DNA from: a virus
Strand: one strand, 5' to 3'
DNA: 18,879 bases
UHGV virus genome: UHGV-1689020
The notes beneath the pieces were generated by a model, which worked only from the letters and a program-made list of their open reading frames with translations, had not been told where the DNA came from and did no database searches. Shown piece by piece: positions 1 to 18,879 of the stretch (within the stretch, counting starts at the first letter, position 1; every line of letters starts with the position of its first letter). The position numbers and the translations under genes are program-made.

Positions 1-44
1 ATTCCCCATTATACGCGCGTATAATGGGGAATTATGTGCTGATT
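1..44. repeat. telRL: telRL/telO-like protelomerase target site (telomere resolution palindrome); left outer arm cut off by the window start
   Basis: nt 1-32 ATTCCCCATTATACGCGCGTATAATGGGGAAT is a perfect 32-bp palindrome centred on CGCG; the core CATTATACGCGCGTATAATG matches my recollection of the N15 telO core; nt 33-44 TATGTGCTGATT looks like the right outer repeat whose inverted partner would lie left of position 1; sits directly upstream of a protelomerase gene. Confidence 0.8.
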
Positions 45-207
45 TTTAGAACAAAGTCAAGGAACAAATTTTGACGTTCCGATATTGTGTTTTTGTTTAT
101 TATCCGTCATTATGTTCTGTTAGTTTGAAGCTAAGTTAACGCGTTATTAGTTATCTTATTCTCAAATTGTGTTACGATAATCAGAGCTGATAATCAGGAG
201 AGGAAAG

Positions 208-4199: not shown

Positions 4200-7100
4200 T
4201 TACCCAAAGAAAGCGCCCTGCTCTTCGTAGCTGCATGAGCTATTCCCCGTAATGTATTCACGTAACCGCCGCAGCTCATTGCTGGAAAGGTGATCCATGA
4301 ACTCTGTGAGGTACAGAGATGCAAACGTCATAGCTATGCTGGCTGATGACCATGATGACATAGTGGCCAACTCCTCACTGGAAAGCGCACTCATCGCCCA
4401 GGACTCAGGTACAGCCACTGGCAACACGGCCAAAGCCTCAGAAATTACTGAATGAGGGGCGTTTTGAACCTGCTCGTTTGTGGATCGCGTTTTATCATCC
4501 ATATATATATTGAGATCCAAATCGCGATCCATTTCGATGGCTGTCTTCTCGGCTTTACGCGTTTTTAGGGTTAGGCCATCTTTCTGACGCTGAACAAGAA
4601 TATCCAGCATAAATGCCGCTGATTCAGGCTCAACAAAACGCAAGGTTGGACGCTTATCGCCGTCTCTGCCGCGACGTTTACCTGTTTTAAGGCCAAGAGA
4701 GTCGCAAATGTTTTTAAACAACGCTTCCGGCACTTTAGGCTTCCCTTTTGGCGTCATAAAACCACCAATGTGCAGAACGTTATTCAACAGGTCACGGCGT
4801 TCGGCTGTCATGAGGTTATCTCGAGCGAATTTGAGACGCTCCTGAGTCGCCTCGCCGGTCATAGTCTCAGGGTTGATACCGCAGTCGATAAAGTACTGCC
4901 GGAGAGTTGCTGATTTAAGCGCATAGAAACCGCGCGCCCCGACTTCAACAGTAGGAGTAGCTTTTACCTTGTGATCGATTATTCCAGGGAATTTAGTTTT
5001 AAAGACATCATCAGCCTGCTCGCGAGTCATCGCGGTCACTACAAAATATTGCCACTGTCCCGCCTGACGGTATGCGTAGGTAAAATTGATGGCTGCTTCT
5101 TCCCGGTCGTAACGACGAGCTGTTACCTCATCTAAAAGCATTGTTTCATAGCGGCGAACTTTGTCTCGAGCACCATCGAAATAGAATTTCAGCGTGCCTT
5201 CTTCAACCGGTAGTTTCAGTTCGTTTTCAATATCCCAGCGGACAAGTTTTGCCTGTTCTTCAAGCGTCAGCGCGCGTTTTTTTAGCAGTTTTTCACGCTC
5301 TGATTCTTGTGGAGTTTCTGTATTGAGGTGCAGATCCAGTGTCTGTTCCCACACAATATCCCGCGCTTCTTTACGCAGATCTTTACCGATATCATTCGCA
5401 GCATAATCGGTGGCCAGCGGTGATACCTTATAACCGTCGCTGTGCATGATGCAGATCATGTTGCTGGCGTAGTCGTTACGCGCAGTCGCTTCAATTGCGG
5501 CTGCTTTAATTTTCATCCTGGTAAAGTCGGTATTGGCCACCCCCATTGATATACGGTCGCCATCGAAAACGACATCCGTAAGTTCACCGTTCATACCTGC
5601 GGTAGCAAGCAATGCCTGGGCGAATGCTCGTTCTATTTTTTGCGGGTCAGTTTCACGTTTTGCACGAGCTTTATCAAAGCCGATAATAAATTCTTTTGCT
5701 GTACGGTCGCGGCGTAGCATTTGCACTGCGTCGCTGGGTACAACTTCACCACAGAACATGCCGAAATGACGGTCAAAATGTTTTTGCTCAATCGACACGC
5801 CGGATGAAATAGACGGGCTATAAATCAGGCCGTCGTATTTTTTGACCATCTTTTTCGGTTGATTGGTAAATGCTTCAACTTCTGGCTCTGGTTTGTTTTT
5901 CTGGTTTACACACAGAAATTTCTTACCAGGAAAATGCATTCTCAGGGTGGCTGTCACATCTTCTGCAAAGGTGGAGCTGTCGGTGGCCAACATGATTTTT
6001 TCGCCATCCGATACAGCTTTCACCACCTCGGTCATGATGCGATCTTTTTCTGTATAAAAAACCCGGATTGGCTCACCTGTTTCGCGGTTGCGAACATCAA
6101 CAGGTAATTCAATTACGTGGATCTGCAGCCATGCCGGTAAACCTAGTTCTTCACGGCGTTTCATAGCCAGTTCAGCCAGGTCAACCAGCAGATCGTTCGC
6201 ATCAGCATCCACCATTATTGGGTGTTGTTCCGTTCTGGCCAGCGCGTCAATTAGCGTATTGAATACAGCCACTGGGTTTTCCATAGCCCGACCGGAAAGA
6301 ACGGCACGTAGCCCTTGTGTGGCCTCGTCAAAGCCAAAATAGTCGTGCTGGCGCATCAACGGTTGCCAGCAGTTTTTAACAATCGAGTTTATGCAGATGG
6401 TCAGTTTACTGGCGTATGGAGCCATTTCCTGATAGCCAGGGTCCTGATAGTGCAGGATATCGGCTTTTACACCTTTTCCTTCTGTCATCATTTCCCACAG
6501 GCCACCAATAAGGGAGACACGGTGAGCAACAGAGATACCACGTTCTGAGCTATGCATTAACGGTCGTAACAATCCAGTAGATTTGCCGGAACCCATACCA
6601 GCACGGACGATGACTATCCCCTGTAGTGATTGCACGTACTTCAGGAGATCATCGGTCATTACCGAAGTTTCAAAACGCTTATAGGTGATATGTTGAGGGC
6701 GTTTATTGGGATCAGTTATGCGTTCGCTGAAAGAGCGCGGAGCCTGGGCAATACGGCACTTTTTATTCAGGCGACGGGCAATGTGGTCTTTTACCGTAGC
6801 GCGATAGATATTTTCCAGTCCCATTTCACGCAGAACGATGCAGAACATGTTAAATAAATCTGACGGACTGTTAGGAACCGGGCAGGTTAGCATGCCAATA
6901 TCCACCGCTCTCAGCAGCTCTTTGGCAAAAGTACGACGGTTATCCCGCTTAATTGTCTTCAGGCGGTTGAGCGTCAGAGATAGCAAATCAGTACCGGTTT
7001 TCAGGCGGTTTGCTGTTGCAAATAGTTGACGTGCTGTTTCACGAAGTCCACGTAGTTTGTGCAGGTCGTTGAAGTCACTGCACTCCATTTGCGGATCGTC

Positions 7101-8195
7101 TTCAAAAGTTGGATAGACGCAGCGGACATCGTTGAATTTCGATAAGATTTCATAGCCAGTCCGCAGGCCGGTATTCCCTTTTCCTTCTGTGGCAGATTTC
7201 CGGTCATTATCCAGTGCGCAGGTGATTTTTACCGCCGGGTACATGTTTACCAGTTGTTCCACAACATGAACCATGTTGTTAGCGGATACAGCGACAACCA
7301 CAGCGTCAAAGCGTTTATCTTTTTTCGTGGCAAGCCAGATGGATGCACCAGTAGCAAAACCTTCTGTAACAGCGATGTTTTGCGCCCCTTTCAGCTCACC
7401 GATAACAAAGCAGGCACCGACGAAATCGCCGCTGGTTACTGCGCTGGTCTGGTATTTCCCACCTTGTTTGTCGATTCGCTGCCAACCCACAATACGACCA
7501 TCGTAACGACCGTCCAGGTGAGCCAGAGGGATAGCCATATATGTGGTTGGTCCCCGACTCCATTTCGCACTGTCGTGACTGGTCACGCGACGCACATCAC
7601 ATGAACTAAAAACGTCACGAATACCTTTTTTAATCGCATATGGCCATGAGCCGTCTTCAGCCGGAGCATGTTCCCACGCGCTGTGGAATGCCAGCCATCC
7701 CAGCAAACGTTCATGGTCCATTTGGTTGTTTTTCAGGTCATTAATTCGTTTTTGTTCTTCACGGCGACGACGTGCTTCGGCCTGACGTTCTATTCTTTCC
7801 CGTTCTTCTTCCGGTTGTGCGACCACGGTCGCATTATTCCGTTGTTGCTCACGGCGATATTCAGAAAACAGGAAGGAGAAACCGCTCCATGAGCCAGCAT
7901 CGCTGCCTTTATGGACGAAGTTAATGAACGGGTAATCAATCCCTTTGCTGTGTTCCAGCCGGGAGTAAATTTCTACGCGTCCTTTCAGGCTCTTTTCGAG
8001 AGCTTCTGGAGATGTTTTATTGTATGAAGAGTAACGCTCAACCCCCCCGCGAGGGTTGAGTTGGATGTTGTCGGAACAGGCAGGCCAGTTGATACCAGCC
8101 ATCTGTGCCAGCTCGGTTAGTTCATCCCGTGCTGCTTCAATTAGCGAGAACGGATCGCTGCCAAAGCGATCCGCATAGAAATCGTTTAATGTCAT
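4200..8195 (-). CDS. repA: multifunctional replication protein RepA (primase-helicase), N15 RepA-like
   Basis: 1331-aa ORF; Walker A motif GMGSGKST in the central part; size, orientation and position between telN and cB match N15 repA as I recall it (about 1300 aa). Confidence 0.88.
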   Translation of the reverse strand: MTLNDFYADRFGSDPFSLIEAARDELTELAQMAGINWPACSDNIQLNPRGGVERYSSYNKTSPEALEKSLKGRVEIYSRLEHSKGIDYPFINFVHKGSDAGSWSGFSFLFSEYRREQQRNNATVVAQPEEERERIERQAEARRRREEQKRINDLKNNQMDHERLLGWLAFHSAWEHAPAEDGSWPYAIKKGIRDVFSSCDVRRVTSHDSAKWSRGPTTYMAIPLAHLDGRYDGRIVGWQRIDKQGGKYQTSAVTSGDFVGACFVIGELKGAQNIAVTEGFATGASIWLATKKDKRFDAVVVAVSANNMVHVVEQLVNMYPAVKITCALDNDRKSATEGKGNTGLRTGYEILSKFNDVRCVYPTFEDDPQMECSDFNDLHKLRGLRETARQLFATANRLKTGTDLLSLTLNRLKTIKRDNRRTFAKELLRAVDIGMLTCPVPNSPSDLFNMFCIVLREMGLENIYRATVKDHIARRLNKKCRIAQAPRSFSERITDPNKRPQHITYKRFETSVMTDDLLKYVQSLQGIVIVRAGMGSGKSTGLLRPLMHSSERGISVAHRVSLIGGLWEMMTEGKGVKADILHYQDPGYQEMAPYASKLTICINSIVKNCWQPLMRQHDYFGFDEATQGLRAVLSGRAMENPVAVFNTLIDALARTEQHPIMVDADANDLLVDLAELAMKRREELGLPAWLQIHVIELPVDVRNRETGEPIRVFYTEKDRIMTEVVKAVSDGEKIMLATDSSTFAEDVTATLRMHFPGKKFLCVNQKNKPEPEVEAFTNQPKKMVKKYDGLIYSPSISSGVSIEQKHFDRHFGMFCGEVVPSDAVQMLRRDRTAKEFIIGFDKARAKRETDPQKIERAFAQALLATAGMNGELTDVVFDGDRISMGVANTDFTRMKIKAAAIEATARNDYASNMICIMHSDGYKVSPLATDYAANDIGKDLRKEARDIVWEQTLDLHLNTETPQESEREKLLKKRALTLEEQAKLVRWDIENELKLPVEEGTLKFYFDGARDKVRRYETMLLDEVTARRYDREEAAINFTYAYRQAGQWQYFVVTAMTREQADDVFKTKFPGIIDHKVKATPTVEVGARGFYALKSATLRQYFIDCGINPETMTGEATQERLKFARDNLMTAERRDLLNNVLHIGGFMTPKGKPKVPEALFKNICDSLGLKTGKRRGRDGDKRPTLRFVEPESAAFMLDILVQRQKDGLTLKTRKAEKTAIEMDRDLDLNIYMDDKTRSTNEQVQNAPHSVISEALAVLPVAVPESWAMSALSSEELATMSSWSSASIAMTFASLYLTEFMDHLSSNELRRLREYITGNSSCSYEEQGAFFG
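4481..4531. other. candidate replication origin element inside the 3' part of repA
   Basis: 9-bp inverted repeat TGGATCGCG ... CGCGATCCA flanking a 33-bp AT-rich spacer containing (AT)5 and three GATC sites within about 50 bp; the N15 ori is reported to lie within the 3' end of repA (recalled from literature). Confidence 0.35.
7574..7587. repeat. palindrome family B copy 2 (CGTGAC-TG-GTCACG), inside repA coding sequence
   Basis: exact 14-bp core shared with 3019-3034 (inverted centre) and 14960-14973. Confidence 0.6.
7818..7833. repeat. palindrome family A copy 1 (TGCGACC-AC-GGTCGCA), sopC/centromere-like, inside repA coding sequence
   Basis: 16-bp 7-2-7 palindrome identical to copies at 10261-10276 (inverted) and 16787-16802; differs from the F sopC SopB site TGGGACCACGGTCCCA (recalled) at one position per arm. 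Confidence 0.65.
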
Positions 8196-8440: not shown

Positions 8441-9037
8441 TCATCTACCCTCAACCATGAATGATTTGATCGTTCCGACTATTTGGTGAACAAATTCAAG
8501 ATCGCTTTTCCTGAAGATGGCGCGTTGTGAGTTTGTTCCATCCAGATAGTAATTTTCATCATCAAAACGGGCCAGGCGCTGGATAGTGATATTTCCTGCA
8601 GTATCACGAACCAGAACATCCTCGCCGGGGACCAGTTCCAGCGCAGAATCGACCAGGAGAAAATCGCCTGGCTGATAGTTTCCCTGCGTAAGATTGCTGA
8701 TAGTTAACGCATACACAGTATTGCGCTGGCTGATGAATGGCAGGAATCGCTCAGTATTTGGAACCTGTCCCGGCTTCCACTCTTCATCCGGCCCACTTTC
8801 AGTTGTGCCAATAACAGGAATGCGGTCAGGGTCATATTCTGTCCCATATAGCACCCAATGCACTGGCTTGCGTAAGCACTTAGCCAGGGCAATACCTATC
8901 TCCAGTGACGGCATTACGTCGCCACGTTCTAAGTTTTGGACGCCTGCTATAGAGATATCGACAGCCTCAGCAACTTCTCGCAACGTCAGCTTCATCTCTA
9001 AACGGCGTGCTTTCAGTCGTTCGCCTCGTGTTTTCAT
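8441..9037 (-). CDS. cB: prophage repressor CB (HTH-XRE N-domain, CI/LexA-like C-domain apparently lacking the catalytic Ser motif)
   Basis: 198-aa ORF; N-terminal HTH LTLREVAEAVDISIAGVQNLERG; C-terminal ...PGDFLLVD... fold signature but no GxSM motif; divergent from cro across an operator-containing intergenic region. Confidence 0.8.
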   Translation of the reverse strand: MKTRGERLKARRLEMKLTLREVAEAVDISIAGVQNLERGDVMPSLEIGIALAKCLRKPVHWVLYGTEYDPDRIPVIGTTESGPDEEWKPGQVPNTERFLPFISQRNTVYALTISNLTQGNYQPGDFLLVDSALELVPGEDVLVRDTAGNITIQRLARFDDENYYLDGTNSQRAIFRKSDLEFVHQIVGTIKSFMVEGR

Positions 9038-9059
9038 ACTGTAATCATAAATGATCTTC

Positions 9060-9075
9060 TTATAGCTGGCTATAA
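9060..9075. promoter_or_regulatory. immB operator O1 (TTATAGC-TG-GCTATAA)
   Basis: 7-2-7 palindrome with perfect arms, 23 bp upstream of the cB ATG in the cB-cro intergenic region. Confidence 0.6.
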
Positions 9076-9085
9076 AATTTATTTA

Positions 9086-9101
9086 TTATAGCTGGCTTTA
9101 A
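9086..9101. promoter_or_regulatory. immB operator O2 (TTATAGC-TG-GCTTTAA)
   Basis: second copy 26 bp from O1 with one arm mismatch; a TATAAT hexamer at 9117-9122 lies between it and the cro start. Confidence 0.55.
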
Positions 9102-9128
9102 TTGTTGTTTATTGTTTATAATAACAAC

Positions 9129-9350
9129 ATGAAACCAGAAGAACTTATTCGCCACTTTGGCAGTGTAGAAAAAGCAGCGGCAGGGGTAGGTGTAACACCC
9201 GGAGCTGTTTACCAATGGTTAACCGCTGGAGAGATTCCTTCATTGCGGCAAAGCGATATTGAAGTTCGTACTGCTTATAAGCTGAAGAGTGACTTTACAA
9301 CTCGGCGGGTAAAGCAGTCGATTAAGGAGAGTCGTAAGCGTGGAGCTTGA
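9129..9350 (+). CDS. cro: Cro-like HTH regulator
   Basis: track ORF 9102-9350 begins at a TTG; preferred start is the ATG at 9129 (MKPEELIRHFGSVEKAAAGVGVTPGAVYQW...); HTH motif; divergent from cB; no obvious Shine-Dalgarno, possibly short-leader transcript. Confidence 0.65.
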   Translation: MKPEELIRHFGSVEKAAAGVGVTPGAVYQWLTAGEIPSLRQSDIEVRTAYKLKSDFTTRRVKQSIKESRKRGA

Positions 9351-10050
9351 GTATATACGCAGCTGCGTCTCTACGGCATTGGCTGATGTTCATTATCGCC
9401 AGCGTGGCATTCTGGAGGTCCAGCTTGAGCAGATGCGTCTCGGTAGGTCAGGACGGTTTAACAATAAACCAGTCCGGTCAATCAGTGTGGGGGATGATAA
9501 CTCATACGAAGTGTCCGTTCCTGCTGAGCCGGTTAGATTCCACCAGGGGAAAACATTTAAACAATCATCAATGTTGCTCACTGATATTGATTTTCAGAGC
9601 GCCAGCTGGCGCAGGGCTATTGGTCAGTTGAATAACGAGGAATCAGCCTGGCTTTATTATTGCTACGGATGCAAGCCTGATTACAACAATGATGTGATTG
9701 TTTGTCAGTGGTTATGGCTTGATTTTCTGGTTGCTCATTCGGGGGGCGGCTTTAAAAAAATGAAGGCCTCCACGAAAAAAGCCATGCGGAAATTGATTTA
9801 TTACGCGGCACAGCAGGTTAAATCAGAACTTACGTGTGCTGAGGCAGTTGATGAGAGAGAACAGGACAGGCATCTGAGTTTTCTACTGAATATATCTATT
9901 GATAGCTGGAGACAAGATTATAAAGAACGCTGGCTTTTAATTAAGTCGCGATGTCTGAGCTTAAATCGAACTGCATTATTAAATGCGGCGGAGAAGCGCA
10001 GTGAAATCATCAAACGCCATCGGGCAGGAAGTGCCATTCTGCCTTTGTAA
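9340..10050 (+). CDS. putative late-gene antiterminator (Q-like), assigned by cB-cro-Q synteny
   Basis: 236-aa ORF starting at GTG 9340 with AAGGAGA 10 nt upstream; overlaps the cro stop by 11 nt; function is inferred from position only, I could not confirm Q motifs by eye. Confidence 0.45.
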   Translation: MELEYIRSCVSTALADVHYRQRGILEVQLEQMRLGRSGRFNNKPVRSISVGDDNSYEVSVPAEPVRFHQGKTFKQSSMLLTDIDFQSASWRRAIGQLNNEESAWLYYCYGCKPDYNNDVIVCQWLWLDFLVAHSGGGFKKMKASTKKAMRKLIYYAAQQVKSELTCAEAVDEREQDRHLSFLLNISIDSWRQDYKERWLLIKSRCLSLNRTALLNAAEKRSEIIKRHRAGSAILPL

Positions 10051-10303
10051 ACAAGTTATGTTCAGGAAACCGTCGAAGCCAGAATTAAGGTATTCGGGGG
10101 TAAGAAATGAATATGTTATCTGGTGTCCAACTTGTGGTTACAGGACACGACCAGATAGTAATAAGCAGTCTGTAATTGCCGATTGGTATTTATCAAATCA
10201 GCCAGGTAATAAGCATATAGAAAATCTTTGGATTAAGCGTTACTTGGAAATCAGAGAGGGTGCGACCGTGGTCGCACAAGAAAATGAAAATAACGCCATT
10301 TAA
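9983..10303 (+). CDS. small Cys-containing protein (CxC ... CxxC), function unknown; alternative start at ATG 10058
   Basis: 106-aa ORF overlapping the 3' end of the Q-like gene; contains FCLC and CPTCG; no clear Shine-Dalgarno for either start; its 3' end carries palindrome A copy 2. Confidence 0.35.
   Translation: MRRRSAVKSSNAIGQEVPFCLCKQVMFRKPSKPELRYSGVRNEYVIWCPTCGYRTRPDSNKQSVIADWYLSNQPGNKHIENLWIKRYLEIREGATVVAQENENNAI
10261..10276. repeat. palindrome family A copy 2 (TGCGACC-GT-GGTCGCA, inverted orientation), sopC/centromere-like
   Basis: exact reverse-complement of the 16-mer at 7818-7833 and 16787-16802; located in the overlap of two small ORFs after the Q-like gene. Confidence 0.65.
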
Positions 10304-10487
10304 GCAGGGGCCGATGACGCATGATGAAGCAGAGCGTCTTTCAGATACTTATCGGCGGCGTGGTAAGAAAGTTCTGGTTGTTCGTTCTGATTTTTTAGGT
10401 GATGGATATTGCGTTTATGTTCATTTACCTGAATCAGAAAGAACGCCAAAACCATCCAGAACATATCAACAGAAAATTTGGGTATAG
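10284..10487 (+). CDS. hypothetical small protein
   Basis: track ORF 10260-10487 starts at a GTG inside the palindrome; first in-frame ATG is 10284; no strong Shine-Dalgarno, start uncertain. Confidence 0.4.
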   Translation: MKITPFKQGPMTHDEAERLSDTYRRRGKKVLVVRSDFLGDGYCVYVHLPESERTPKPSRTYQQKIWV

Positions 10488-10510
10488 ATAAACGTTGAGG
10501 AGAATTATTC

Positions 10511-11110
10511 GTGACTAATCAGATTATTTACGACAGGAAACGGTCTGATGTAATGATTGATCTTGAAACAATGGGTACTAACACATGTGCTCCAATTGTT
10601 TCTATCGGGGCAGTGTTTTTTTCTCCAGAAAGTGAGGAATTAGGTCCTACTTTTTATGTGCCAGTGAATCTCAGAAGCTCGATGTTGAATGGAGGTATCG
10701 CCGATGGTGATACCATTTTATGGTGGTTGAAACAGAGCAAGGAAGCCAGAGCCGCTATTTGTACTAATGATGCCCTTGATATTAAGGATGCACTTTTTGA
10801 ATTATCACACTTTATTACTTGCCATGCATGTAATTTAAAAAAGTTGAAAGTATGGGGAAATGGAGCAACGTTCGATAATGTAATTTTACGCGGTGCTTAT
10901 GAGCGCGTTGGCTTAGCCTGTCCGTGGGAATATTTTAATGATCAGGATGTTCGAACAATCGTTAATCTTGGTCAGTTTATTGGTTTTAATCCTAAAAAAG
11001 ATATGCCATTTGATGGCGAACGACACAATGCCTTGGCTGATGCTATTCATCAGGCTAAATATGTATCCGCAATTTTCTCCCGTCTTGTAAAAGGGCAAGG
11101 AGAATCGTAA
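10511..11110 (+). CDS. DEDDh-type 3'-5' exonuclease (DnaQ-like fold)
   Basis: 199-aa ORF, GTG start with GAGGAG 8 nt upstream; motifs MIDLETMG (exo I), WGNGATFDNVIL (exo II), ERHNALADAIHQAKY (exo III with His). Confidence 0.75.
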   Translation: MTNQIIYDRKRSDVMIDLETMGTNTCAPIVSIGAVFFSPESEELGPTFYVPVNLRSSMLNGGIADGDTILWWLKQSKEARAAICTNDALDIKDALFELSHFITCHACNLKKLKVWGNGATFDNVILRGAYERVGLACPWEYFNDQDVRTIVNLGQFIGFNPKKDMPFDGERHNALADAIHQAKYVSAIFSRLVKGQGES

Positions 11111-11529
11111 TGGCAAAGGCTTTTACACCAGAACAGAGGGAAGAACTGAATAAACAAATTGTGGAACTCGTGCGCCTGAATGGACGAGGAACGGTTAGGC
11201 AACTTGCGGATGAAACTGGTATTAGCCGGTGTGCTGTTAGTCGTTTATCAAGAGAGCTTGCTGCCAGTGGTGATTTGTATATCTCTGGCTCCGGGATATT
11301 TCTGTCTGCACAAGCACGCAAGGACTGGCAAAACGCCCGTAAAAAACTATCAAGAGTAAAGCCGAAGAAATCGGTAGTGGTTGATCCAGACCTTATCTGG
11401 TCATTACCTGACGGAGAAATACGTCGTTACGACAGGCGCTTGAACATGATTTGTCACGATTGCCGGAAAAGTGAAGTTATGCAGCGTGTGCTGGCTTTTT
11501 ATCAGGGAAATTTACAGGAGGTGGCGTAG
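11110..11529 (+). CDS. HTH DNA-binding protein, function unknown
   Basis: 139-aa ORF; ATG overlaps the upstream stop (TAATG); AAGGAGA upstream; HTH-like segment GTVRQLADETGISRCAVSRLSREL. Confidence 0.6.
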   Translation: MAKAFTPEQREELNKQIVELVRLNGRGTVRQLADETGISRCAVSRLSRELAASGDLYISGSGIFLSAQARKDWQNARKKLSRVKPKKSVVVDPDLIWSLPDGEIRRYDRRLNMICHDCRKSEVMQRVLAFYQGNLQEVA

Positions 11530-11819
11530 TGAATATCGACACCACGATAACGATCGATACGGCCCTAAATATCGGTCTGGCACTTCTCGGTTGGTTTTAC
11601 ATCATGTTCAGTGCGGGGAAGTGGGCGGCCTCTGTTTTTCTAAAGCAGTGGGGAAAGCACCGCAAACAGGAAAGACGCCAGAAAGTGTTAGAGGCGTTCT
11701 ATGACGCATTTGAACTTAGCCGCATTGAGCCAGGCACAACAGCCAAGATAGCGACAAAAGGCGACCTGATGATAGTGATGTTCCGACAGGAGAGAGCAGA
11801 GAAAGGGGAATCAGCATGA
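11529..11819 (+). CDS. small membrane protein, function unknown
   Basis: GTG start overlapping the upstream stop (TAGTG) with AGGAGGTGG upstream; hydrophobic segment LNIGLALLGWFYIMFSAG. Confidence 0.5.
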   Translation: MNIDTTITIDTALNIGLALLGWFYIMFSAGKWAASVFLKQWGKHRKQERRQKVLEAFYDAFELSRIEPGTTAKIATKGDLMIVMFRQERAEKGESA

Positions 11820-12448
11820 AATTTTCCAAATTTTCTGAGTTGGTGAATCGTATTTTGTCCAACAACCACAGCCATCGTCGCGATATGGATGTAACAATCG
11901 TTATTCATTCGCCTGGCAGCATTGGTTCAACACCCTCAGTTGAGGTTCAGTCAATTCACGCTGGTTTTGATTGGGATTCCGGGAAAGTGCTGATTTTTCC
12001 ATCACAGCCACTGACCACGCTAACACCAGAGCAGGTTGCTGATATCACTGATAGTGTGCGCAAAGGTCAGTCTTGGCACGCATATCAGGAATATAAGAAG
12101 CATAAAGAGCAGTTGGAAAAATTGTCGATTGAACTGGATGCCGCAAAACAGCGCATTGCAGAGCTGGAGGGTAATCGCACGGCGCTGGCGGCGGAGAATG
12201 CGGGGCTTAAACAGTCGGAGAAGGAATTTAATAACTTCTGTCGTCAGGAGTACTACGGTTGGGAGGACAACTTCACGGAAACCCCAGCCACCGACGCTTT
12301 CCTGGCTGAAATTGAACGCAAAGCAATCCGCAAGTTCATTAACAGCATTGAACACATCCTGCGTGACAAGCTGTCTCCGTATGATACCGAAGAGATGCTT
12401 GAGGCTATGCGTATTTTTCTGGAAGAACAGGAAGGTGAGCAAAAATGA
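11816..12448 (+). CDS. hypothetical protein with coiled-coil region
   Basis: 210-aa ORF, ATGA overlap with the upstream gene; heptad-like region LEKLSIELDAAKQRIAELEGNRTALAAENAGLK. Confidence 0.55.
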   Translation: MKFSKFSELVNRILSNNHSHRRDMDVTIVIHSPGSIGSTPSVEVQSIHAGFDWDSGKVLIFPSQPLTTLTPEQVADITDSVRKGQSWHAYQEYKKHKEQLEKLSIELDAAKQRIAELEGNRTALAAENAGLKQSEKEFNNFCRQEYYGWEDNFTETPATDAFLAEIERKAIRKFINSIEHILRDKLSPYDTEEMLEAMRIFLEEQEGEQK

Positions 12449-12759
12449 CGATCACAAAACAACGTGTAGAAGAAATCATATCCCGTATTGAAATGTATGG
12501 GCATGGTGCCGGGTATACCGCTGATGAGGTTTATGACCTTGCTGTACTGGCGCTGAATTTATCAAATATCGCAAAACTCAAGCGATACGAGCTTGATATG
12601 GATGGTTGTGACTCGTTCGGTCAGGATTGTGGCGCTGACATGACTGAAGATTCTGATGGCGATTATGTCCTGTTTGATGACGTAGTTAAGTTGTTTGAGT
12701 TTGATACATTCGAAAGCCCAGTAAAGGAGGCAGCCAGTGAGCGGAAAAAGAATGACTAA
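12445..12759 (+). CDS. hypothetical acidic protein
   Basis: 104-aa ORF, ATGA overlap with the upstream gene, GGTGAG upstream. Confidence 0.5.
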   Translation: MTITKQRVEEIISRIEMYGHGAGYTADEVYDLAVLALNLSNIAKLKRYELDMDGCDSFGQDCGADMTEDSDGDYVLFDDVVKLFEFDTFESPVKEAASERKKND

Positions 12760-12961
12760 CAGAGAGCTTGTCGATGCCGCGATTAAGCTTGCTGGTGATT
12801 TTTATTCAATGATGGGGTACACGCATCGCCCAGGCTTCAAATATTGGGAGTCTCCTCACCCGCAAGAGCAACTGGTATTTCAAATGGCCTGCCGTGCTTT
12901 TGAGGTTATTCGCGGTTCTGATGTGATGGACGCCGTTGCCGACTTGGAGGATGAAGAGTGA
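12737..12961 (+). CDS. hypothetical protein
   Basis: 74-aa ORF from GTG 12737 with AAGGAGG 6 nt upstream; overlaps the previous ORF by 23 nt. Confidence 0.5.
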   Translation: MSGKRMTNRELVDAAIKLAGDFYSMMGYTHRPGFKYWESPHPQEQLVFQMACRAFEVIRGSDVMDAVADLEDEE

Positions 12962-13506
12962 GCGAAATTAATTATCAGGCACTGCGTGATGCGGCAGAAA
13001 AGGCAACGAAAGGGAGCTACATCGTAGGGCATACATCTGTTAACCAGCACGGCAATTTAACAGGAGTTTTTGTTTGCCAAAAATGGAAAGGAGAACCCGG
13101 TGGCGTGATTGCAGAATGTCATGTTAACTGCCTGGTTGAAACAGATGCTCAGGCTTACGCAAACGCTGAATTTATTGCTGCCTTTAATCCAAATGTTGCG
13201 CTGGCACTACTGGATGAACGGGAAAGAAACCAGCAATACATAAAATCCCGCGACAAGGAGAACGAGGATATTGCGCTAACGGTAGGGAAGCTGCGCGTTG
13301 AGCTTGAAGCAGAAAAACAGCGGGCAAAAGTTCTATTTATGGAAAATGCTCGGCTTAAGTCAGGCATAGCCGGTCTGATACACCTCGGTATTCGATATGC
13401 AGATGTTGAGGTCATGAAAATTGCTGGAGATGCCCAGCTTTCTACCCCATGCACTGACAGCATCATAAACAGCATTGCAACAGGCATTCGCATCAAAGGA
13501 GAGTGA
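12958..13506 (+). CDS. Ead/Ea22-like protein
   Basis: 182-aa ORF from GTG 12958 (GGAGGA upstream); internal segment AEFIAAFNPNVALALLDERERN resembles the Ea22-family signature I recall (...NPATVLALLDE...); C-terminal coiled-coil. Confidence 0.55.
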   Translation: MSEINYQALRDAAEKATKGSYIVGHTSVNQHGNLTGVFVCQKWKGEPGGVIAECHVNCLVETDAQAYANAEFIAAFNPNVALALLDERERNQQYIKSRDKENEDIALTVGKLRVELEAEKQRAKVLFMENARLKSGIAGLIHLGIRYADVEVMKIAGDAQLSTPCTDSIINSIATGIRIKGE

Positions 13507-13507
13507 T

Positions 13508-13771
13508 ATGGCAACTTTAACAAAAAAAGAACGGGCATGGTTGAACGAATTACAGGACGTTCTTGATCGCTGCCCATCACCGAAAAAAATTGGTTTTTAC
13601 ACCATTGGCGATAAAAGCATTTACCTGTATGACCTGCGCCGCATGGATGAAATCATGGAGGCTCTTGATAATCGTTCGTCGATGGATTGGTGTGTTGCTG
13701 TCCATGATATGAATGCCGGATTTGATGAAAGGATTTTGTTCCCCTCATCAGTTGAAAGCACTGCGGGTTAA
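13508..13771 (+). CDS. hypothetical protein
   Basis: track ORF 13475-13771; preferred start is the ATG at 13508, preceded by AAAGGAGAG and 2 nt after the upstream stop. Confidence 0.5.
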   Translation: MATLTKKERAWLNELQDVLDRCPSPKKIGFYTIGDKSIYLYDLRRMDEIMEALDNRSSMDWCVAVHDMNAGFDERILFPSSVESTAG

Positions 13772-13781
13772 GGAGTAACAC

Positions 13782-14168
13782 ATGACCACTATTACCAAAG
13801 AGCGACTACTGACAATCAAACAGTGGCGCGAAACATACGGACCTGGTAGCAACGTTGTACTGCCAGCAGAAGAAGCGGAAGAACTGGCACGAATTGCTCT
13901 GGCATCGCTGGAAGCAAAACCAATAGGTGCATTCCACATTGCAGAACAGCAAGTTGACGGCACAAGTGACTACCTCAAGGATGGAGAATGGCCTATTGAT
14001 AATGGAATTATTGAGGTCTACGCCGCTCCACCCGTTCCAGTAGTACCGGAAGAAAAACCAATGCCTAATCCTCTTAGCATGTACGCGGTTGATGCTGTTG
14101 CCGCTATTGCAGAGGTGAGAGGCTGGAATGCCTGCCGCGCTGCTATGCTTCAGGGAAAAGGAGAGTGA
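13782..14168 (+). CDS. hypothetical protein
   Basis: 128-aa ORF, AAGGAG 7 nt upstream; begins MTTIT like the next gene. Confidence 0.55.
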   Translation: MTTITKERLLTIKQWRETYGPGSNVVLPAEEAEELARIALASLEAKPIGAFHIAEQQVDGTSDYLKDGEWPIDNGIIEVYAAPPVPVVPEEKPMPNPLSMYAVDAVAAIAEVRGWNACRAAMLQGKGE

Positions 14169-14169
14169 T

Positions 14170-14622
14170 ATGACCACTATAACCGATAAGAAACAGTATC
14201 CAGGCGAGCAATATCTTAATGAGCTGATCACCAACATAGAGTTTGCTGCAAGGGCACCAGTTGAAGTCGTGAGAGCGATGGCAGCAGAGCTACAGAAGCG
14301 GCGCGAAGCTGATAGTGCAGAACCTGTAAGCCAAACTTACAAGTTAACTTTTGAGCAATGGCTGGAACGGCAGCACGGCAAAATTGATGTTGATTGCGGC
14401 TGTGTGAGCACTGAAACGCTTCTGCACTGGATGCGTGTGGCGTATGAGGCTGGCAACTCTCCGGTAACTCCGGATGGTCATGTTCAGTTTTCTGTTTCAC
14501 TTCCTGCAGCGTTTGGTGGAGATAAATATTTTATTGATGGTGTATTTCAACCTTTGAGATATGAGCGTGACTGTGAAAGGGCGGTTGTGGTCGCTGGCGG
14601 TGTAGTTAATTGGGTTAAGTAA
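14170..14622 (+). CDS. hypothetical protein
   Basis: track ORF 14128-14622; preferred start is the ATG at 14170, preceded by the same AAAGGAGAGTGATATG junction seen at 13495-13510. Confidence 0.55.
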   Translation: MTTITDKKQYPGEQYLNELITNIEFAARAPVEVVRAMAAELQKRREADSAEPVSQTYKLTFEQWLERQHGKIDVDCGCVSTETLLHWMRVAYEAGNSPVTPDGHVQFSVSLPAAFGGDKYFIDGVFQPLRYERDCERAVVVAGGVVNWVK

Positions 14623-14637
14623 TTTTCAGGAGGATTT

Positions 14638-14964
14638 ATGGCGCTGACACCGGCAGAACGGCAAAGGAGACGCAGGGAACGGTTGAAGAAGGAAGGCACA
14701 TCAAGACGGGAGTGGATTCTAGAACCTGACGAGTTACGTATGTTGGGGGAAATTTGTGTATTGCGTAGACCAGGGCGAGTTCCATATTCGGAGAACGAAG
14801 TCATTGGTTTGCTGATCAGGAAAAACTATAAGGAGCTGCAGAAGCAGCTATCTACTACTTGCCCGCGATGTGGTCAAAAAATGCCTGTTTCAGAATGCAT
14901 TTTTGATGGCGAAGGGTCATGCCACCTTACAACCACGAGGCTGAAACTTGCGCTCAAAGCGTGA
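14638..14964 (+). CDS. small basic protein with C-terminal Cys cluster (possible DNA-binding regulator)
   Basis: 108-aa ORF, AGGAGGA upstream; N-terminal LTPAERQRRRRERLKKEG, C-terminal CPRCG...C...C; stop codon lies inside palindrome B copy 3. Confidence 0.55.
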   Translation: MALTPAERQRRRRERLKKEGTSRREWILEPDELRMLGEICVLRRPGRVPYSENEVIGLLIRKNYKELQKQLSTTCPRCGQKMPVSECIFDGEGSCHLTTTRLKLALKA

Positions 14965-14973
14965 CTGGTCACG
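14960..14973. promoter_or_regulatory. palindrome family B copy 3 (CGTGAC-TG-GTCACG) overlapping a stop codon and the next gene's ribosome-binding site
   Basis: CGTGACTGGTCACG runs straight into GGAGGG (the Shine-Dalgarno of the ORF at 14983); same core as 3019-3034 and 7574-7587. Confidence 0.6.
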
Positions 14974-14982
14974 GAGGGATAA

Positions 14983-15225
14983 ATGGATAAAAAGGCATTG
15001 CTTTTTGAAATGATACGAAAACGGAGCGAAAAGAGCTTTTCTGATGGTGGTGATGGGTTTGTTTTCGCTTCGATGCTTGCTTTTGATGTTGGGTTAAATA
15101 GCAGAATTGTTAAAAGGATGCTTGATTCTGCTGTCCGTACTGGACTTCTTGAGAAAGTTGATCGTGGCATAGGGAGAGAGCATAAGTATCGGGCCACACA
15201 GCAGTTTACGCAGTTAATTCATTGA
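14983..15225 (+). CDS. hypothetical small protein (possible winged-helix)
   Basis: 80-aa ORF with GGAGGG 5 nt upstream. Confidence 0.5.
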   Translation: MDKKALLFEMIRKRSEKSFSDGGDGFVFASMLAFDVGLNSRIVKRMLDSAVRTGLLEKVDRGIGREHKYRATQQFTQLIH

Positions 15226-15307
15226 AAATTGACCGTCAAGTTTGAGTTTTAACCTGTAATTTTATACAGTATAAATAACCTTTTTTAGTTAAATGGTATG
15301 AGATCTA

Positions 15308-15511
15308 ATGTCTGAAGCAGCCGTATCAACTCTTGAACAACTCGATTCAAATTTAAGAGATATTGACGCCGTTCTGGATCTGGTTAGCGTCACCCTGGCT
15401 TCTCCAGAAGCCAGCCTACATATTGGTGAGGTTTCACGACTCATCAACATGTCGCGAGAGATTGCCCAGCATTGTCAGAAAACTATCGCTGTTGAGCGTT
15501 CACATCATTGA
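15308..15511 (+). CDS. hypothetical small acidic protein
   Basis: 67-aa ORF after an AT-rich intergenic region; weak Shine-Dalgarno; convergent with the toxin-antitoxin pair. Confidence 0.4.
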   Translation: MSEAAVSTLEQLDSNLRDIDAVLDLVSVTLASPEASLHIGEVSRLINMSREIAQHCQKTIAVERSHH

Positions 15512-15553
15512 TGCACACCCCGCCCTTCTGGACGGGGTAGTAAAAGAGTCTAA

Positions 15554-15841
15554 TTAATAAACAGCGCGAATATCGATGGTTGCGCCGCAGGCATGAGCAT
15601 ATTTAGCCAAAGTTTTCATACTTGCCCCTAAAGGATTGCTTTCCAGGCGGCTGATGGCTGACGGTCGCAACCCCATTCGTTCAGCCAGAGCTGATTTCGT
15701 TAAACCTGCTCTTTCCCTCATTTCGTATAGCATTTCGACCATCTCCAGCTCTTTGTCGGCCTCTTCATATCCTTTGACGGCTTCTGGAGTGTTGAGGAGT
15801 TTTTCTTTTACTTCGTTAAACGGGATGCCTTTCGCTTTCAT
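15554..15841 (-). CDS. HTH-XRE antitoxin (HigA-like)
   Basis: 95-aa ORF; HTH GLTKSALAERMGLRPSAISRLE; ATG overlaps the stop of the upstream toxin gene (ATGA). Confidence 0.75.
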   Translation of the reverse strand: MKAKGIPFNEVKEKLLNTPEAVKGYEEADKELEMVEMLYEMRERAGLTKSALAERMGLRPSAISRLESNPLGASMKTLAKYAHACGATIDIRAVY

Positions 15842-16152
15842 CAGTTCATCTCCTTCAGGCGAGTTCTGGCGATTTCGATAGCCTTCACCGGTGTTTTCTG
15901 TGTCTTTTTTACAAATGCATGCAATAGATAAATTTCGTTACCAGTCGCGTAGGCGTACAGCGTTCTTGCGATGTTTTTATCCCCTACTCGTAGTTCAAAA
16001 AGCCCTCCACCTATTACACGGCTATGGGGCATCTTCAGTTTGTTGCCTTCTTTCTCCAGTCGCTCAATTAATCTGGTCATGCGACCTCGCAAATCATCTG
16101 GTAGTTCAAGCAGTTCATCCAGTGCTGCAGGGTGGGTTATCACGTTAAACAT
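15841..16152 (-). CDS. RelE/ParE-superfamily toxin, Gp49-like (HigB-like)
   Basis: track ORF extends to 16197, but GGAGG sits 8 nt upstream of the ATG at 16150-16152 (MFNVITHPAALDELLELPDD...); C-terminal LFELRVGDKNIARTLYAYATGNEIYLLHAFVKKTQKTP is the Gp49-like toxin pattern as I recall it; toxin-upstream, antitoxin-downstream order as in higBA. Confidence 0.75.
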   Translation of the reverse strand: MFNVITHPAALDELLELPDDLRGRMTRLIERLEKEGNKLKMPHSRVIGGGLFELRVGDKNIARTLYAYATGNEIYLLHAFVKKTQKTPVKAIEIARTRLKEMN

Positions 16153-16317
16153 ATTATAGCCTCCATATCCATAAAATACACCAAAACAAGAAAACAACGC
16201 AAATTAAAAATTTCACTAAAAAGCGAAAAATAACACTGGATGTGTTCGTTTGGCAGAGTTACAGTTCGTGTCATTGAGAGGCAATAACCCACTAACTATA
16301 TGAATTTGGAGGATATT

Positions 16318-16539
16318 ATGAATTATCAAGGTAACGAAAAAATGCGCGACGATGTTGCGGAGATAGCTAACGAACTGTATGAGTTGTGGCAGAAGGTTGA
16401 ACGTTTCGAAAAGGAATATGGTTTCAACAGTACCAACCTAACAGACCGACTGGCTGGTCGCTTAGTTGGGACTATGGGGCCAAAACTGGCTGAGTTGAAC
16501 CGCTTTATGGCTGATGTTGATTTCCAGTTTCAAGATTGA
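16318..16539 (+). CDS. hypothetical small protein
   Basis: track ORF 16300-16539; GGAGG lies 5 nt upstream of the second ATG at 16318. Confidence 0.5.
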   Translation: MNYQGNEKMRDDVAEIANELYELWQKVERFEKEYGFNSTNLTDRLAGRLVGTMGPKLAELNRFMADVDFQFQD

Positions 16540-16552
16540 TTAGAGAGGCGTT

Positions 16553-16780
16553 ATGAATATTAATGAAATTCGTGGAAATATGACTGAAGCGGCCCTGAGT
16601 GTGGAATGTGTTATGCGTGGATACCCACGCATTTCCCTGAAAGAGTTAAGCGAAGCCTGTTTTTTGAGTCAAGCTGCCGTTGAATTTATCATCGAACAGA
16701 TGATCTGTTTTGGGGTTGCAAAGCGTAGCGGATCTGGTCGATATTCTTTGACCGATGAATATAAGCAGGCAACTTTCTAA
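16553..16780 (+). CDS. hypothetical small protein (possible DNA-binding)
   Basis: 75-aa ORF with GAGAGG upstream. Confidence 0.5.
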   Translation: MNINEIRGNMTEAALSVECVMRGYPRISLKELSEACFLSQAAVEFIIEQMICFGVAKRSGSGRYSLTDEYKQATF

Positions 16781-16782
16781 AA

Positions 16783-16806
16783 GCTGTGCGACCACGGTCG
16801 CACAGC
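16783..16806. promoter_or_regulatory. palindrome family A copy 3, extended (GCTGTGCGACC-AC-GGTCGCACAGC), sopC/centromere-like, at the head of the late region
   Basis: 24-bp 11-2-11 palindrome containing the 16-mer core (16787-16802); intergenic, 3 nt after the stop of the previous gene. Confidence 0.65.
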
Positions 16807-16887
16807 ACAAAAACGAAAAAGCTTGGCAAAATGACGGTTTTTAGTTATTGTTTTGTTAAGTTGGGTTTTTTGTACCCAACAGCCAAC

Positions 16888-16914
16888 AAGCCGCCTTTAT
16901 GGCGGTTTTTTTGT
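16888..16914 (+). terminator. rho-independent terminator candidate (possible tR'-like) in the late regulatory region
   Basis: CCGCC-TTTAT-GGCGG followed by TTTTTTT. Confidence 0.5.
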
Positions 16915-16928
16915 GCCTGAAAAGTGGG

Positions 16929-16956
16929 CGCAGGACAAGTTGCAGCTTGTCCTGCG
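16929..16956. other. perfect 11-bp stem hairpin without U-tract
   Basis: CGCAGGACAAG-TTGCAG-CTTGTCCTGCG; a further 14-bp palindrome GCGATGCGCATCGC sits at 17000-17013. Confidence 0.5.
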
Positions 16957-17047
16957 GTCAACCCATGCCAGAGCTATAGGCTGAACCTAAAGCCCACCCG
17001 CGATGCGCATCGCCGGGTTAGCTTACCCAGGCAAAAAAATAATAGCT

Positions 17048-18124
17048 ATGTTCAAAACCACTAATATTCATGGCGCACAACTCGTTTGCGCAGATTCTCT
17101 GCAATTTATCAAAACCATCCCTGATAACTCGGTCAATTTGATTGCAACAGACCCACCATACTTCGGCGTAAAGGCTAACGCATGGGATAACCAGTGGGAT
17201 AGCGATGCTGACTTTTTGGGGTGGATTGACGAATTTTTGGCAGAATTTTGGCGGATATTGGCCCCTAATGGCAGCCTGTATATGTTTACCGGCTCTCGCC
17301 TTGCGTCAAAAATTGAATTATTAACTCGCGACCGTTTCAATGTTCTGAACCATATCATTTGGGCTAAACCAAGTGGTATGTGGCGCGGTTGTCATAAAGA
17401 AAGTTTAAGGGCTTATTTTCCTGCTACTGAAAGAATATTATTTGCAGAGCATTACGGCGCGTCAGGTTATGCTAAAGGTCAGTCAGGTTATGCTTCAAAA
17501 TGTGCAGATTTAAGAAAAAATATTTTTTCTCCACTAATTGATGCTTTTTCGCTGGCTCGCCGTCAGTTAGATATATCAGCCGCAGACATTAATTCAGCGA
17601 CAGGAAAGCAGATGTGTTCACACTGGTTTTCTTATTCGCAGTGGCGGCTTCCATCATTAATTGATTTTAATAAACTATGCGAATTATTTCGCAGGAAGGC
17701 AGATTCACTCGGTGTCCCGTGTCCATATCCTTTTAATGTTGATTATTCAGAACATGAAAAGCGTTATAGCGATCTGAAATTGCATTATGAGGAAGTAAAG
17801 AAGCAGTATGATGATTTGAAGGCTCAGTATGAAAATTTACGCCGTCCATTTCATGTTACTGCTGATGTACCTTATACCGATGTATGGGAGTTTCCTCCTG
17901 TGCAATATTATCCTGGCAAGCACCCATGTGAAAAACCTGCAGCGATGATGGAACATATTATAAAGAGTAGTTCACGCCCCGGAGATATCGTTGCCGATTT
18001 CTTTATGGGATCAGGCTCAACTATTAAAGCTGCGCTGAAGTTAGGACGTCAGGCAATAGGTATTGAGATTGAGGGCGAACGTTATCTTCAGACAGTTGAT
18101 GAAGTGAAAAAGTTATTTGAGTAA
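17048..18124 (+). CDS. DNA methyltransferase (beta-class amino-MTase; DPPY motif, so likely N6-adenine or N4-cytosine)
   Basis: track ORF starts at 17003, but the typical MTase N-terminus begins at ATG 17048 (MFKTTNIHGAQLVCADSLQFIKTIPDNSVNLIATDPPYF); AdoMet motif FFMGSGST near the C-terminus; no adjacent restriction endonuclease candidate. Confidence 0.8.
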   Translation: MFKTTNIHGAQLVCADSLQFIKTIPDNSVNLIATDPPYFGVKANAWDNQWDSDADFLGWIDEFLAEFWRILAPNGSLYMFTGSRLASKIELLTRDRFNVLNHIIWAKPSGMWRGCHKESLRAYFPATERILFAEHYGASGYAKGQSGYASKCADLRKNIFSPLIDAFSLARRQLDISAADINSATGKQMCSHWFSYSQWRLPSLIDFNKLCELFRRKADSLGVPCPYPFNVDYSEHEKRYSDLKLHYEEVKKQYDDLKAQYENLRRPFHVTADVPYTDVWEFPPVQYYPGKHPCEKPAAMMEHIIKSSSRPGDIVADFFMGSGSTIKAALKLGRQAIGIEIEGERYLQTVDEVKKLFE

Positions 18125-18219
18125 CTGGAGAATATATTCCCCTGCCGTTTTTGGTAGGGGTTATTTTCGCCATATAGTTTCCAAGCCGAAACCTCAGCAA
18201 CTATTGCGAGGTAAGAGAT

Positions 18220-18492
18220 ATGAAGATGGATGAACTATACAGAAGTGCACCTTATGGTAGCGCTGGTCTTGCTGCGTTCTTTGCCAGCCTGTCATTGCAG
18301 GATTGGAGCTTCATTATCGGTGTCGCGTTCAGCATTATCCTCGGTGTGCTTACATACCGGCTCAATAAACGCGAGCAGATGAAGCGCACGAAGATATTGC
18401 AGGACATATTGGATAAAACTAATACCAATAATCTTTCTGCTACAGCGATGGTTATTGGAGAGCTGGGGAAGAGAGCACCGAAGGAAATATGA
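18220..18492 (+). CDS. holin, pinholin-like with MKM dual-start motif
   Basis: 90-aa ORF with GAGGT upstream; two hydrophobic segments ([14 protein letters not shown] and [18 protein letters not shown]) then a charged tail; stop overlaps the endolysin start; architecture resembles phage 21 S as I recall it. Confidence 0.65.
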
Positions 18493-18781
18493 TGCAGTCA
18501 TCATTACGCAAAGCTGTCACAGCTGCTATTGGTGGCGGGGCTATTGCCATAGCGTCTATGCTCATCACTGGCCCAAGTGGTAACGATGGTCTGGAAGGTG
18601 TCAGTTACATACCATACAAAGATATTGTTGGCGTATGGACTGTATGTTACGGACACACTGGAAAAGACATCATGCTAGGTAAAACGTATACCGAAGCAGA
18701 ATGCAAAGCTCTCCTGAATAAAGACCTTGCCACTGTCGCCAGACAAATTAACCCGTACATCAAAGTCGATATACCGGAAAC
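18489..18781 (+). pseudogene. SAR endolysin (phage 21 R-like lysozyme) truncated after codon 98 by an IS insertion
   Basis: residues 1-98 ([50 protein letters not shown]...KVDIPET) match my recollection of the phage 21 SAR endolysin; from 18782 the frame reads IS-derived sequence ([16 protein letters not shown]) and the expected C-terminal 65 or so residues are absent. Confidence 0.8.
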
Positions 18782-18879
18782 GGCACTGTTGCAAATAGTC
18801 GGTGGTGATAAACTTATCATCCCTTTTTGCTGATGGAGCTGCACATGAACCCATTCAAAGGCCGGCATTTTCAGCGTGA
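18782..18879 (+). mobile_element. IS26-family (IS6 family) insertion sequence, left end, continuing beyond the window
   Basis: GGCACTGTTGCAAA terminal inverted repeat at 18782-18795 followed by TAGTCGGTGGTGATAAACTTATCATCC...GCTGATGGAGCTGCAC and the transposase start; matches the IS26 end as I recall it, with one apparent substitution. Confidence 0.85.
18845..18879 (+). CDS. tnpA: IS26-family transposase, 5' fragment (first 11 codons, runs off window)
   Basis: ATG at 18845 translates MNPFKGRHFQR, the N-terminus of the IS26 transposase as I recall it. Confidence 0.8.
   Translation, partial: MNPFKGRHFQR

Follow-up and report, generated by a model that had tools for sequence, protein, structure and literature searches.

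An IS26 end joined to the SAR endolysin gene of a predicted N15-like linear phage-plasmid

The window, that is, the whole stretch of 18,879 nucleotides analysed here, starts with a perfect palindrome and carries genes of plasmid maintenance and of phage development. The following features lie upstream of the lysis genes.

1-32: telomere palindrome, perfect over 32 nt (computed), ATTCCCCATTATACGC/GCGTATAATGGGGAAT
208-2121: telN protelomerase gene, a 637-aa ORF matched by all four TelK/ResT Pfam domains
4200-8195, minus strand: repA, a 1331-aa ORF
15554-16197, minus strand: toxin-antitoxin pair, Gp49/RelE-like toxin (PF05973) and HTH antitoxin

The palindrome is placed 176 nt upstream of the protelomerase gene and presumably resembles the telO core of N15. 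This pairing, a protelomerase gene beside a palindromic telomere site, is characteristic of N15-like elements. The database records of linear relatives start at window positions 22-113. The tip of the hairpin is probably at position 17, with positions 1-16 being a read-through around it.

Downstream of repA there are a repressor/cro pair, a gene for the Q antiterminator (PF06323) and a block of small mosaic genes. Then follow the Gp49/HTH toxin-antitoxin pair, an N6/N4 DNA methyltransferase gene, a holin-like gene, and the endolysin gene that ends the arm. The toxin-antitoxin pair sits on the opposite strand inside the rightward gene block and is conserved across all relatives examined.

When compared with linear E. 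coli plasmids of 46-48 kb, annotated with a protelomerase and the CyRepA1 replication protein, 18,781 nt of the window align at 98.4-98.5% identity and 84-89% coverage. Downstream of the endolysin gene, and on its strand, these relatives have Rz, a DUF4406 gene, terminase, and lambda-like head and tail genes, with sopAB at the far end; the endolysin is the only one that they possess. Thus repA, Q and the lysis genes are seen in the window itself, and the structural and sop genes are known from the relatives of 98% identity. Taken together, the sequence features identify the window as the arm of an N15-like linear E. coli phage-plasmid that carries the protelomerase gene. The initial annotation had spoken of a phage-plasmid, and the four protelomerase domains, the telomere palindrome and the 98% identity to linear E. 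coli plasmids agree with this and point to the linear type of N15.

One region of the arm, 12169-14320, differs from that of pCAVP367-48, the closest linear relative. Encoded there are an Ead/Ea22-like protein (12958-13506) and several products without Pfam matches; one of the latter, a 128-aa protein (13782-14168), has identical copies in lambdoid prophages and in plasmid-like contigs of roughly 108 kb. Given these copies, the region is best described as a mosaic module swapped between phages and phage-plasmids. The 128-aa protein was considered as a marker of the lineage and rejected, being a widely shared mosaic gene (2,372 blocks).

The right end of the window is occupied by the lysis cassette.

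18139-18170, plus strand: terminator-like hairpin with a T-tract, a 9-pair stem with 6 G-C pairs, CCCCTGCCGTTTTTGGTAGGGG and then TTATTTT
18220-18492, plus strand: holin-like gene, 90 aa, annotated as 'phage holin family protein' in relatives
18492-18781, plus strand: native 5' part of a SAR endolysin gene of the R21/RrrD type, codons 1-96 and two bases of codon 97
18492-18833, plus strand: fusion ORF of 113 aa, composed of 97 endolysin residues and 16 residues from the left end of IS26, with the TGA stop codon at 18831-18833

The hairpin separates the methyltransferase gene from the lysis cassette, and its position between the methyltransferase and holin genes suggests that transcription of the lysis genes depends on antitermination by Q. 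The stop codon of the holin-like gene and the first ATG of the endolysin ORF share the sequence ATGA. The holin-like protein has a hydrophobic stretch at approximately residues 17-50 and matches PF16080, the HP1-type holin family (3e-5), and PF04971, the P21 holin S family (2.4e-4). Both are class II families, and both matches are below the Pfam threshold. The phage 21 pinholin, at 71 aa, is shorter than the 90-aa protein found here, whose assignment to a holin class is tentative.

The endolysin ORF has two candidate starts. The upstream ATG at 18489 yields 98 native codons, the number given in the initial annotation, and the start used for R21 and in RefSeq, at 18492, yields 97. The native 97 residues are identical at 91 positions both to R21 of phage 21 (3HDE, E=2e-57) and to RrrD (4ZPU). 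The initial annotation had named phage 21 R and P1 Lyz as comparators. The likeness to R is evident; Lyz is distant, matching the full-length protein at E=1.5e-9 and giving no match to the native fragment at E<=0.01. The catalytic triad E-X8-D-X5-T is kept (E35, D44, T50), and the SAR domain occupies residues 8-27, where the basic residues R6-K7 are followed by a 20-residue segment with 6 Ala, 4 Gly, 2 Thr and 1 Ser. With a lysozyme domain carrying the triad and a Gly/Ala-rich N-terminal segment after basic residues, as the true-lysozyme triad and the SAR motif are defined in PMC9239132, the gene belongs to the SAR endolysins, as had been proposed. Enzymes of this class are exported in a Sec-dependent manner, and either depolarisation or a pinholin releases them from the membrane (PMC9239132, PMC6116005).

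This gene is cut. The Pfam match to PF00959 (E=4.7e-18) covers profile positions 3-66 of 125, whereas in an intact relative it covers positions 3-125. The third base of codon 97 is supplied by the inserted sequence, and the codon still encodes Thr. Residues 98-165, that is, the C-terminal 68 residues comprising about half of the lysozyme fold, are missing from the 113-aa product. In annotation, such a 113-aa 'lysozyme' should be named a pseudogene fragment.

The native endolysin sequence extends up to 18781, and from 18782 the window reads GGCACTGTTGCAAATAGTCGG... with the following features.

18782-18795, plus strand: left terminal inverted repeat of IS26, 14 bp, the same as both ends of the 820-bp IS26 in pEco118UIb
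18782-18879, plus strand: first 98 nt of IS26, the left 12% of the element, cut by the end of the window
18845-18879, plus strand: start of tnp26, ATG at 18845-18847, encoding MNPFKGRHFQR and two further bases

The window has a single copy of the repeat GGCACTGTTGCAAA (18782-18795, plus strand). For a 14-mer with up to 2 mismatches, 0.2 matches are expected by chance, so the terminal repeat alone is weak evidence. However, all 98 nt at 18782-18879 are identical to E. coli copies of IS26, among them a complete 820-bp copy in pEco118UIb, which has both 14-bp repeats and encodes the 234-aa Tnp26 (WP_001067855.1), annotated as 'IS6-like element IS26 family transposase'. In a second contig, described below, the identity extends to 126 of 126 nt. 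By this nucleotide identity, the inserted element is assigned to IS26 itself. The initial annotation had set the beginning of an IS26-type terminal repeat at 18782, and both the match of 98/98 nt and the break of homology, exact to the base, confirm this placement; the transposase start MNPFKGRHFQR was also read correctly.

The ATG of tnp26 is nucleotide 64 of the IS, after a leader of 63 nt, and the first 11 codons (21 in the second contig) match Tnp26. The copy in the window is a minority variant of IS26, with T replacing C at nucleotide 43 of the IS (window position 18824), in the leader upstream of tnp26. Among 5838 matching E. coli records, the T form is matched at >=99% identity in 417 and the C form at >=99% identity in 5675. 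This variant could help to trace the donor replicon, were the other IS26 copies of the sample typed. The tnp26 gene is oriented like the lysis and late genes, and 11 nt separate the tnp26 ATG from the preceding stop codon of the fusion ORF, with a GGAG box between them. Since translation of the endolysin fragment ends at the initiation region of the transposase gene, translational coupling of the two is possible during late expression.

The junction was compared with the corresponding site in related elements. The match of all relatives, whether plasmids, E. coli genomes or members of phage collections, stops at 18781. Where the window reads CCGGAAAC/GGCACTG, the relatives read CCGGAAAC/AACGCG; in longer form, the intact gene reads CCGGAAAC/AACGCGCGGC and the window CCGGAAAC/GGCACTGTTG. 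All 13 fetched relatives have the empty site and an intact gene (165 aa in 12 and 164 aa in one). In eight of them, the 290 nt of the 5' part match the window at 100% identity. No IS26 was found at the loci of these 13 relatives. The lysis region is covered by about 27 plasmid and 16 E. coli records, nearly all with a single match, and thus with no separate left end of IS26. The record with two matches that was examined, CP088810.1, is an inverted duplicate.

This 81-kb 'circular' record (33000-81175, with sopA/sopB at 28820-33999) has sopA/sopB and tail genes mirrored around one point and contains no IS26. It is a hairpin-ended linear phage-plasmid that the assembler has read around its telomere. 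IS26 cargo as the cause of the larger size of the 62-91 kb 'circular' relatives was thus rejected for the one examined. The others may share this inverted-duplicate artefact, and their sizes should not be taken as cargo.

The insertion point lies between the second and third bases of codon 97 as R21 is numbered; this is codon 98 when counting starts at the upstream ATG. IS6-family elements generally make 8-bp target repeats (PMC7986276), and in the case of a simple insertion the following duplication is predicted at the other end of the IS.

18774-18781, plus strand: predicted target duplication, CCGGAAAC, 8 bp

The left junction is absent from PLSDB plasmids, 5,426 complete E. coli genomes, INPHARED phages, GTDB genome contigs, IMG/VR and JGI metagenomes. 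The reciprocal junction, that is, the right end of IS26 followed by CCGGAAAC and AACGCG, is absent from genome, metagenome and viral contigs.

The junction does recur in other metagenome assemblies. The exact 113-aa fusion product is encoded on five ENA metagenome-assembly contigs, none of them from an isolate genome; the 114-aa version starting at the first ATG gave no match in the exact-product lookup. One of the five is a MEGAHIT k127 contig from run ERR209706, a human gut metagenome of PRJEB1220, a project that later papers reuse as a faecal cohort for IBD. The contig matches window positions 8492-18879 at 100.000% identity (0 mismatches in 10,388 nt), has the same junction and continues into the IS for 126 nt. 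The 28 nt past the end of the window read ...QRDIILWAVRWY as in Tnp26. The expectation of the initial annotation that the sequence would continue as an IS6-family transposase is thereby borne out for 28 nt of the anticipated remainder of the IS; the DNA-searchable collections of genome, metagenome and viral contigs yielded no right end of this IS copy, no 8-bp duplication, no displaced 3' portion of the gene and no cargo.

The two contigs stop 126 nt (equal to k-1 for k127) and 98 nt into the IS, and both ends look like repeat collapse at a multicopy IS. Contig ends of this kind should be recognised as such in annotation. With the telomere palindrome at one end and the repeat collapse at the other, the window probably represents an entire short-read contig, bounded on one side by a physical end of the DNA and on the other by a repeat.

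A 97-aa 'lysozyme, partial' of Shigella sonnei, present on 35 contigs, ends with ...KVDIPET, at the same residue as the break made by IS26. It differs from the protein of the window at 8 of 97 residues, and tblastn assigns it to a different allele, of the chromosomal essD-rrrD type. The octamer CCGGAAAC could be an insertion hotspot. On the other hand, the shared end residue could be a coincidence, since the same protein cluster includes many contig-end partials of 62-104 aa.

What is seen directly is an IS26 end that adjoins the endolysin gene midway along its length, in a type of element that has a single such gene. The most plausible explanation, to which we give a probability of about 0.85, is a transposition of IS26 into this gene in an N15-like linear E. 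coli phage-plasmid, with a truncated product that is probably inactive and with lysis probably lost. An insertion into the endolysin gene had been proposed in the initial annotation, and the data support it through one junction. IS26 would have arrived by replicative formation of a cointegrate with an IS26-bearing replicon. The cointegrate may then have been resolved by homologous recombination between the two IS copies, which would leave a single IS and the 8-bp duplication.

Loss of endolysin activity, and with it of lysis as the initial annotation had proposed, is likely from the loss of half of the lysozyme domain: an enzyme with half a lysozyme fold would be inactive. In SAR endolysin systems the holin need only collapse the membrane potential, and the pinholes of phage 21 are too small for a cytoplasmic endolysin (PMC6116005). 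An induced cell would thus die without lysing: the holin would still kill it, and the wall would stay undegraded with the virions trapped inside. Rescue would need another expressed endolysin, for instance from another prophage. As chromosomal endolysins of the rrrD type are common in E. coli, with up to 96.5% nucleotide identity to the 5' part of the gene among complete genomes, complementation in trans during co-induction is possible.

Persistence as a linear plasmid should be unaffected, as the window has an intact telomere, telN and repA. IS26 lies upstream of about 25 kb of late genes on the same strand, and production of virions would also need the Q-modified RNA polymerase to read through the IS. 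Such read-through is expected of a polymerase modified by a lambda-type Q. Speculatively, late transcription may also raise transposase expression on induction, because tnp26 is co-directional with the late operon and starts just past the fusion stop codon.

Other structures may lie behind the same junction. We rank a single IS26 first, a unit bounded by IS26 or a cointegrate second, and an IS26-mediated deletion or inversion third, all three being possible. In the second of these, the visible IS26 would be the first copy of a larger IS26-bounded structure, either a translocatable unit with resistance genes or an unresolved cointegrate plasmid. The endolysin gene would be disrupted all the same, and the main consequence would be the acquired cargo, which the initial annotation had suggested may lie just beyond the window. 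IS6-family elements mainly form cointegrates with two direct copies of the IS (PMC7986276), and in other groups of phage-plasmids no IS neighbours resistance genes more often than IS26 (PMC9600943). Moreover, a contig end at k-1 implies, from the logic of de Bruijn assembly, at least one further copy of this left end elsewhere in the sample. However, a second IS26 elsewhere in the cell or the community would explain the contig break equally well, the IS being present at a median of 5 places in IS26-positive E. coli genomes. No cargo sequence is seen, and the relatives are cos-packaged, lambda-like and 46-48 kb long, so that a few extra kb would fit the capsid, although this limit matters less once lysis is lost. 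The capsid-size argument against a large cargo is based on the packaging limits of lambda. Finally, two surveys found no resistance genes in elements of the N15 group (PMC9600943; bioRxiv 10.1101/2025.09.12.675607). On balance we consider this structure rather unlikely. The more specific claim that IS26 forms the left boundary of a resistance unit or captured plasmid, which would make this the first N15-group phage-plasmid with resistance cargo, is unlikely; if true, one event would both turn a phage-plasmid into a pure linear resistance plasmid and destroy its lysis gene.

The third possibility, which we regard as quite improbable, is an earlier insertion of IS26 elsewhere in the element, followed by an attack in cis at this site with deletion or inversion of the intervening DNA. 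In that case the 3' remainder of R, possibly together with Rz and the late genes, would lie away from the IS, and there would be no flanking duplication. Adjacent deletions and inversions by intramolecular replicative transposition are a known behaviour of the IS26 family. The absence of the reciprocal junction from genome, metagenome and viral contigs agrees with such a rearrangement, but the left junction is absent from them too and is known only from ENA assemblies, so this null search says little. No positive evidence for a rearrangement was found. In addition, a hairpin-ended linear replicon needs a second telomere, and sopAB is at the far end in the relatives; the far arm must therefore remain attached in some form.

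That the join is an assembly chimera of a phage-plasmid contig and an unrelated IS26 copy is extremely improbable: although the contigs with this junction, the window and the five encoding the fusion product, all appear to be short-read metagenome assemblies that end in a repeat, a de Bruijn chimera requires a k-mer common to IS26 and the intact gene and there is none at this point, the join falls exactly at nucleotide 1 of the terminal repeat, which is a signature of transposition, the same junction is seen in two assemblies ending 98 and 126 nt into the IS, and neither contig branches at 18781, as would be expected were the intact allele abundant in the sample.

Under the preferred explanation, transposition of IS26 into the endolysin gene, the element is a natural example of a phage-plasmid grounded by an IS: the plasmid machinery is kept, and bursting of the cell and viral spread are very probably lost. 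This would be one step on the known route from a phage-plasmid to a plain plasmid. It also indicates that elements of the N15 type are indeed reached by IS26, which in Enterobacteria is the main assembler of resistance regions. Elements of this type are common in clinical E. coli, Shigella and Klebsiella, and no resistance genes have been reported in them to date. This gap in the N15 group would be filled if there is cargo past the IS. The importance of the case is limited, and the DNA beyond the IS is worth a look.

The gene order of the window is that of pS159-3 (NZ_OY757103.1) and pCAVP367-48 (NZ_CP145143.1), namely the telomere, telN, repA, a cB-like repressor gene, cro and Q, and further on the methyltransferase, holin and R genes. 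These two plasmids are 98.4-98.5% identical to the window over 84-88% of its length, and differ from it in lacking IS26 and in having an uninterrupted R, with Rz and the late genes behind it. The prototype of the interrupted enzyme is the experimentally defined R21 (PDB 3HDE/3HDF), with which the fragment shares, as it does with RrrD of DLP12 (PDB 4ZPU), the Gly/Ala-rich SAR segment and the E35-D44-T50 triad. Compared with R21, the SAR segment differs at two positions (T10/A and M23/V). The endolysin of the intact relative is 165 aa long, as is R21, whereas the one described here is cut after residue 97 and extended by 16 residues encoded by the IS. The upstream holin-like protein weakly resembles the pinholin family of phage 21. 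The inserted element agrees with IS26 of the IS6/IS26 family (820 bp, 14-bp repeats, the DDE transposase Tnp26 of 234 aa) in its left repeat, leader and early tnp26 codons, and departs from most IS26 copies by the T at nucleotide 43.

As IS26, its disruption of genes, the endolysin and the type of phage-plasmid are all already known, the event is of a known kind. Its mildly unusual aspect is the target, the N15 group, which had no resistance genes in the two surveys and no IS26 in the relatives examined. IS26-associated resistance regions have been described in P1-like, SSU5-like and pKpn-like phage-plasmids (Pfeifer et al. 2022, PMC9600943). The present case is similar to these in that IS26 lies inside a phage-plasmid. 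It differs from them in that no cargo is visible and in that the gene hit by the IS belongs to the phage core and not to a plastic locus.
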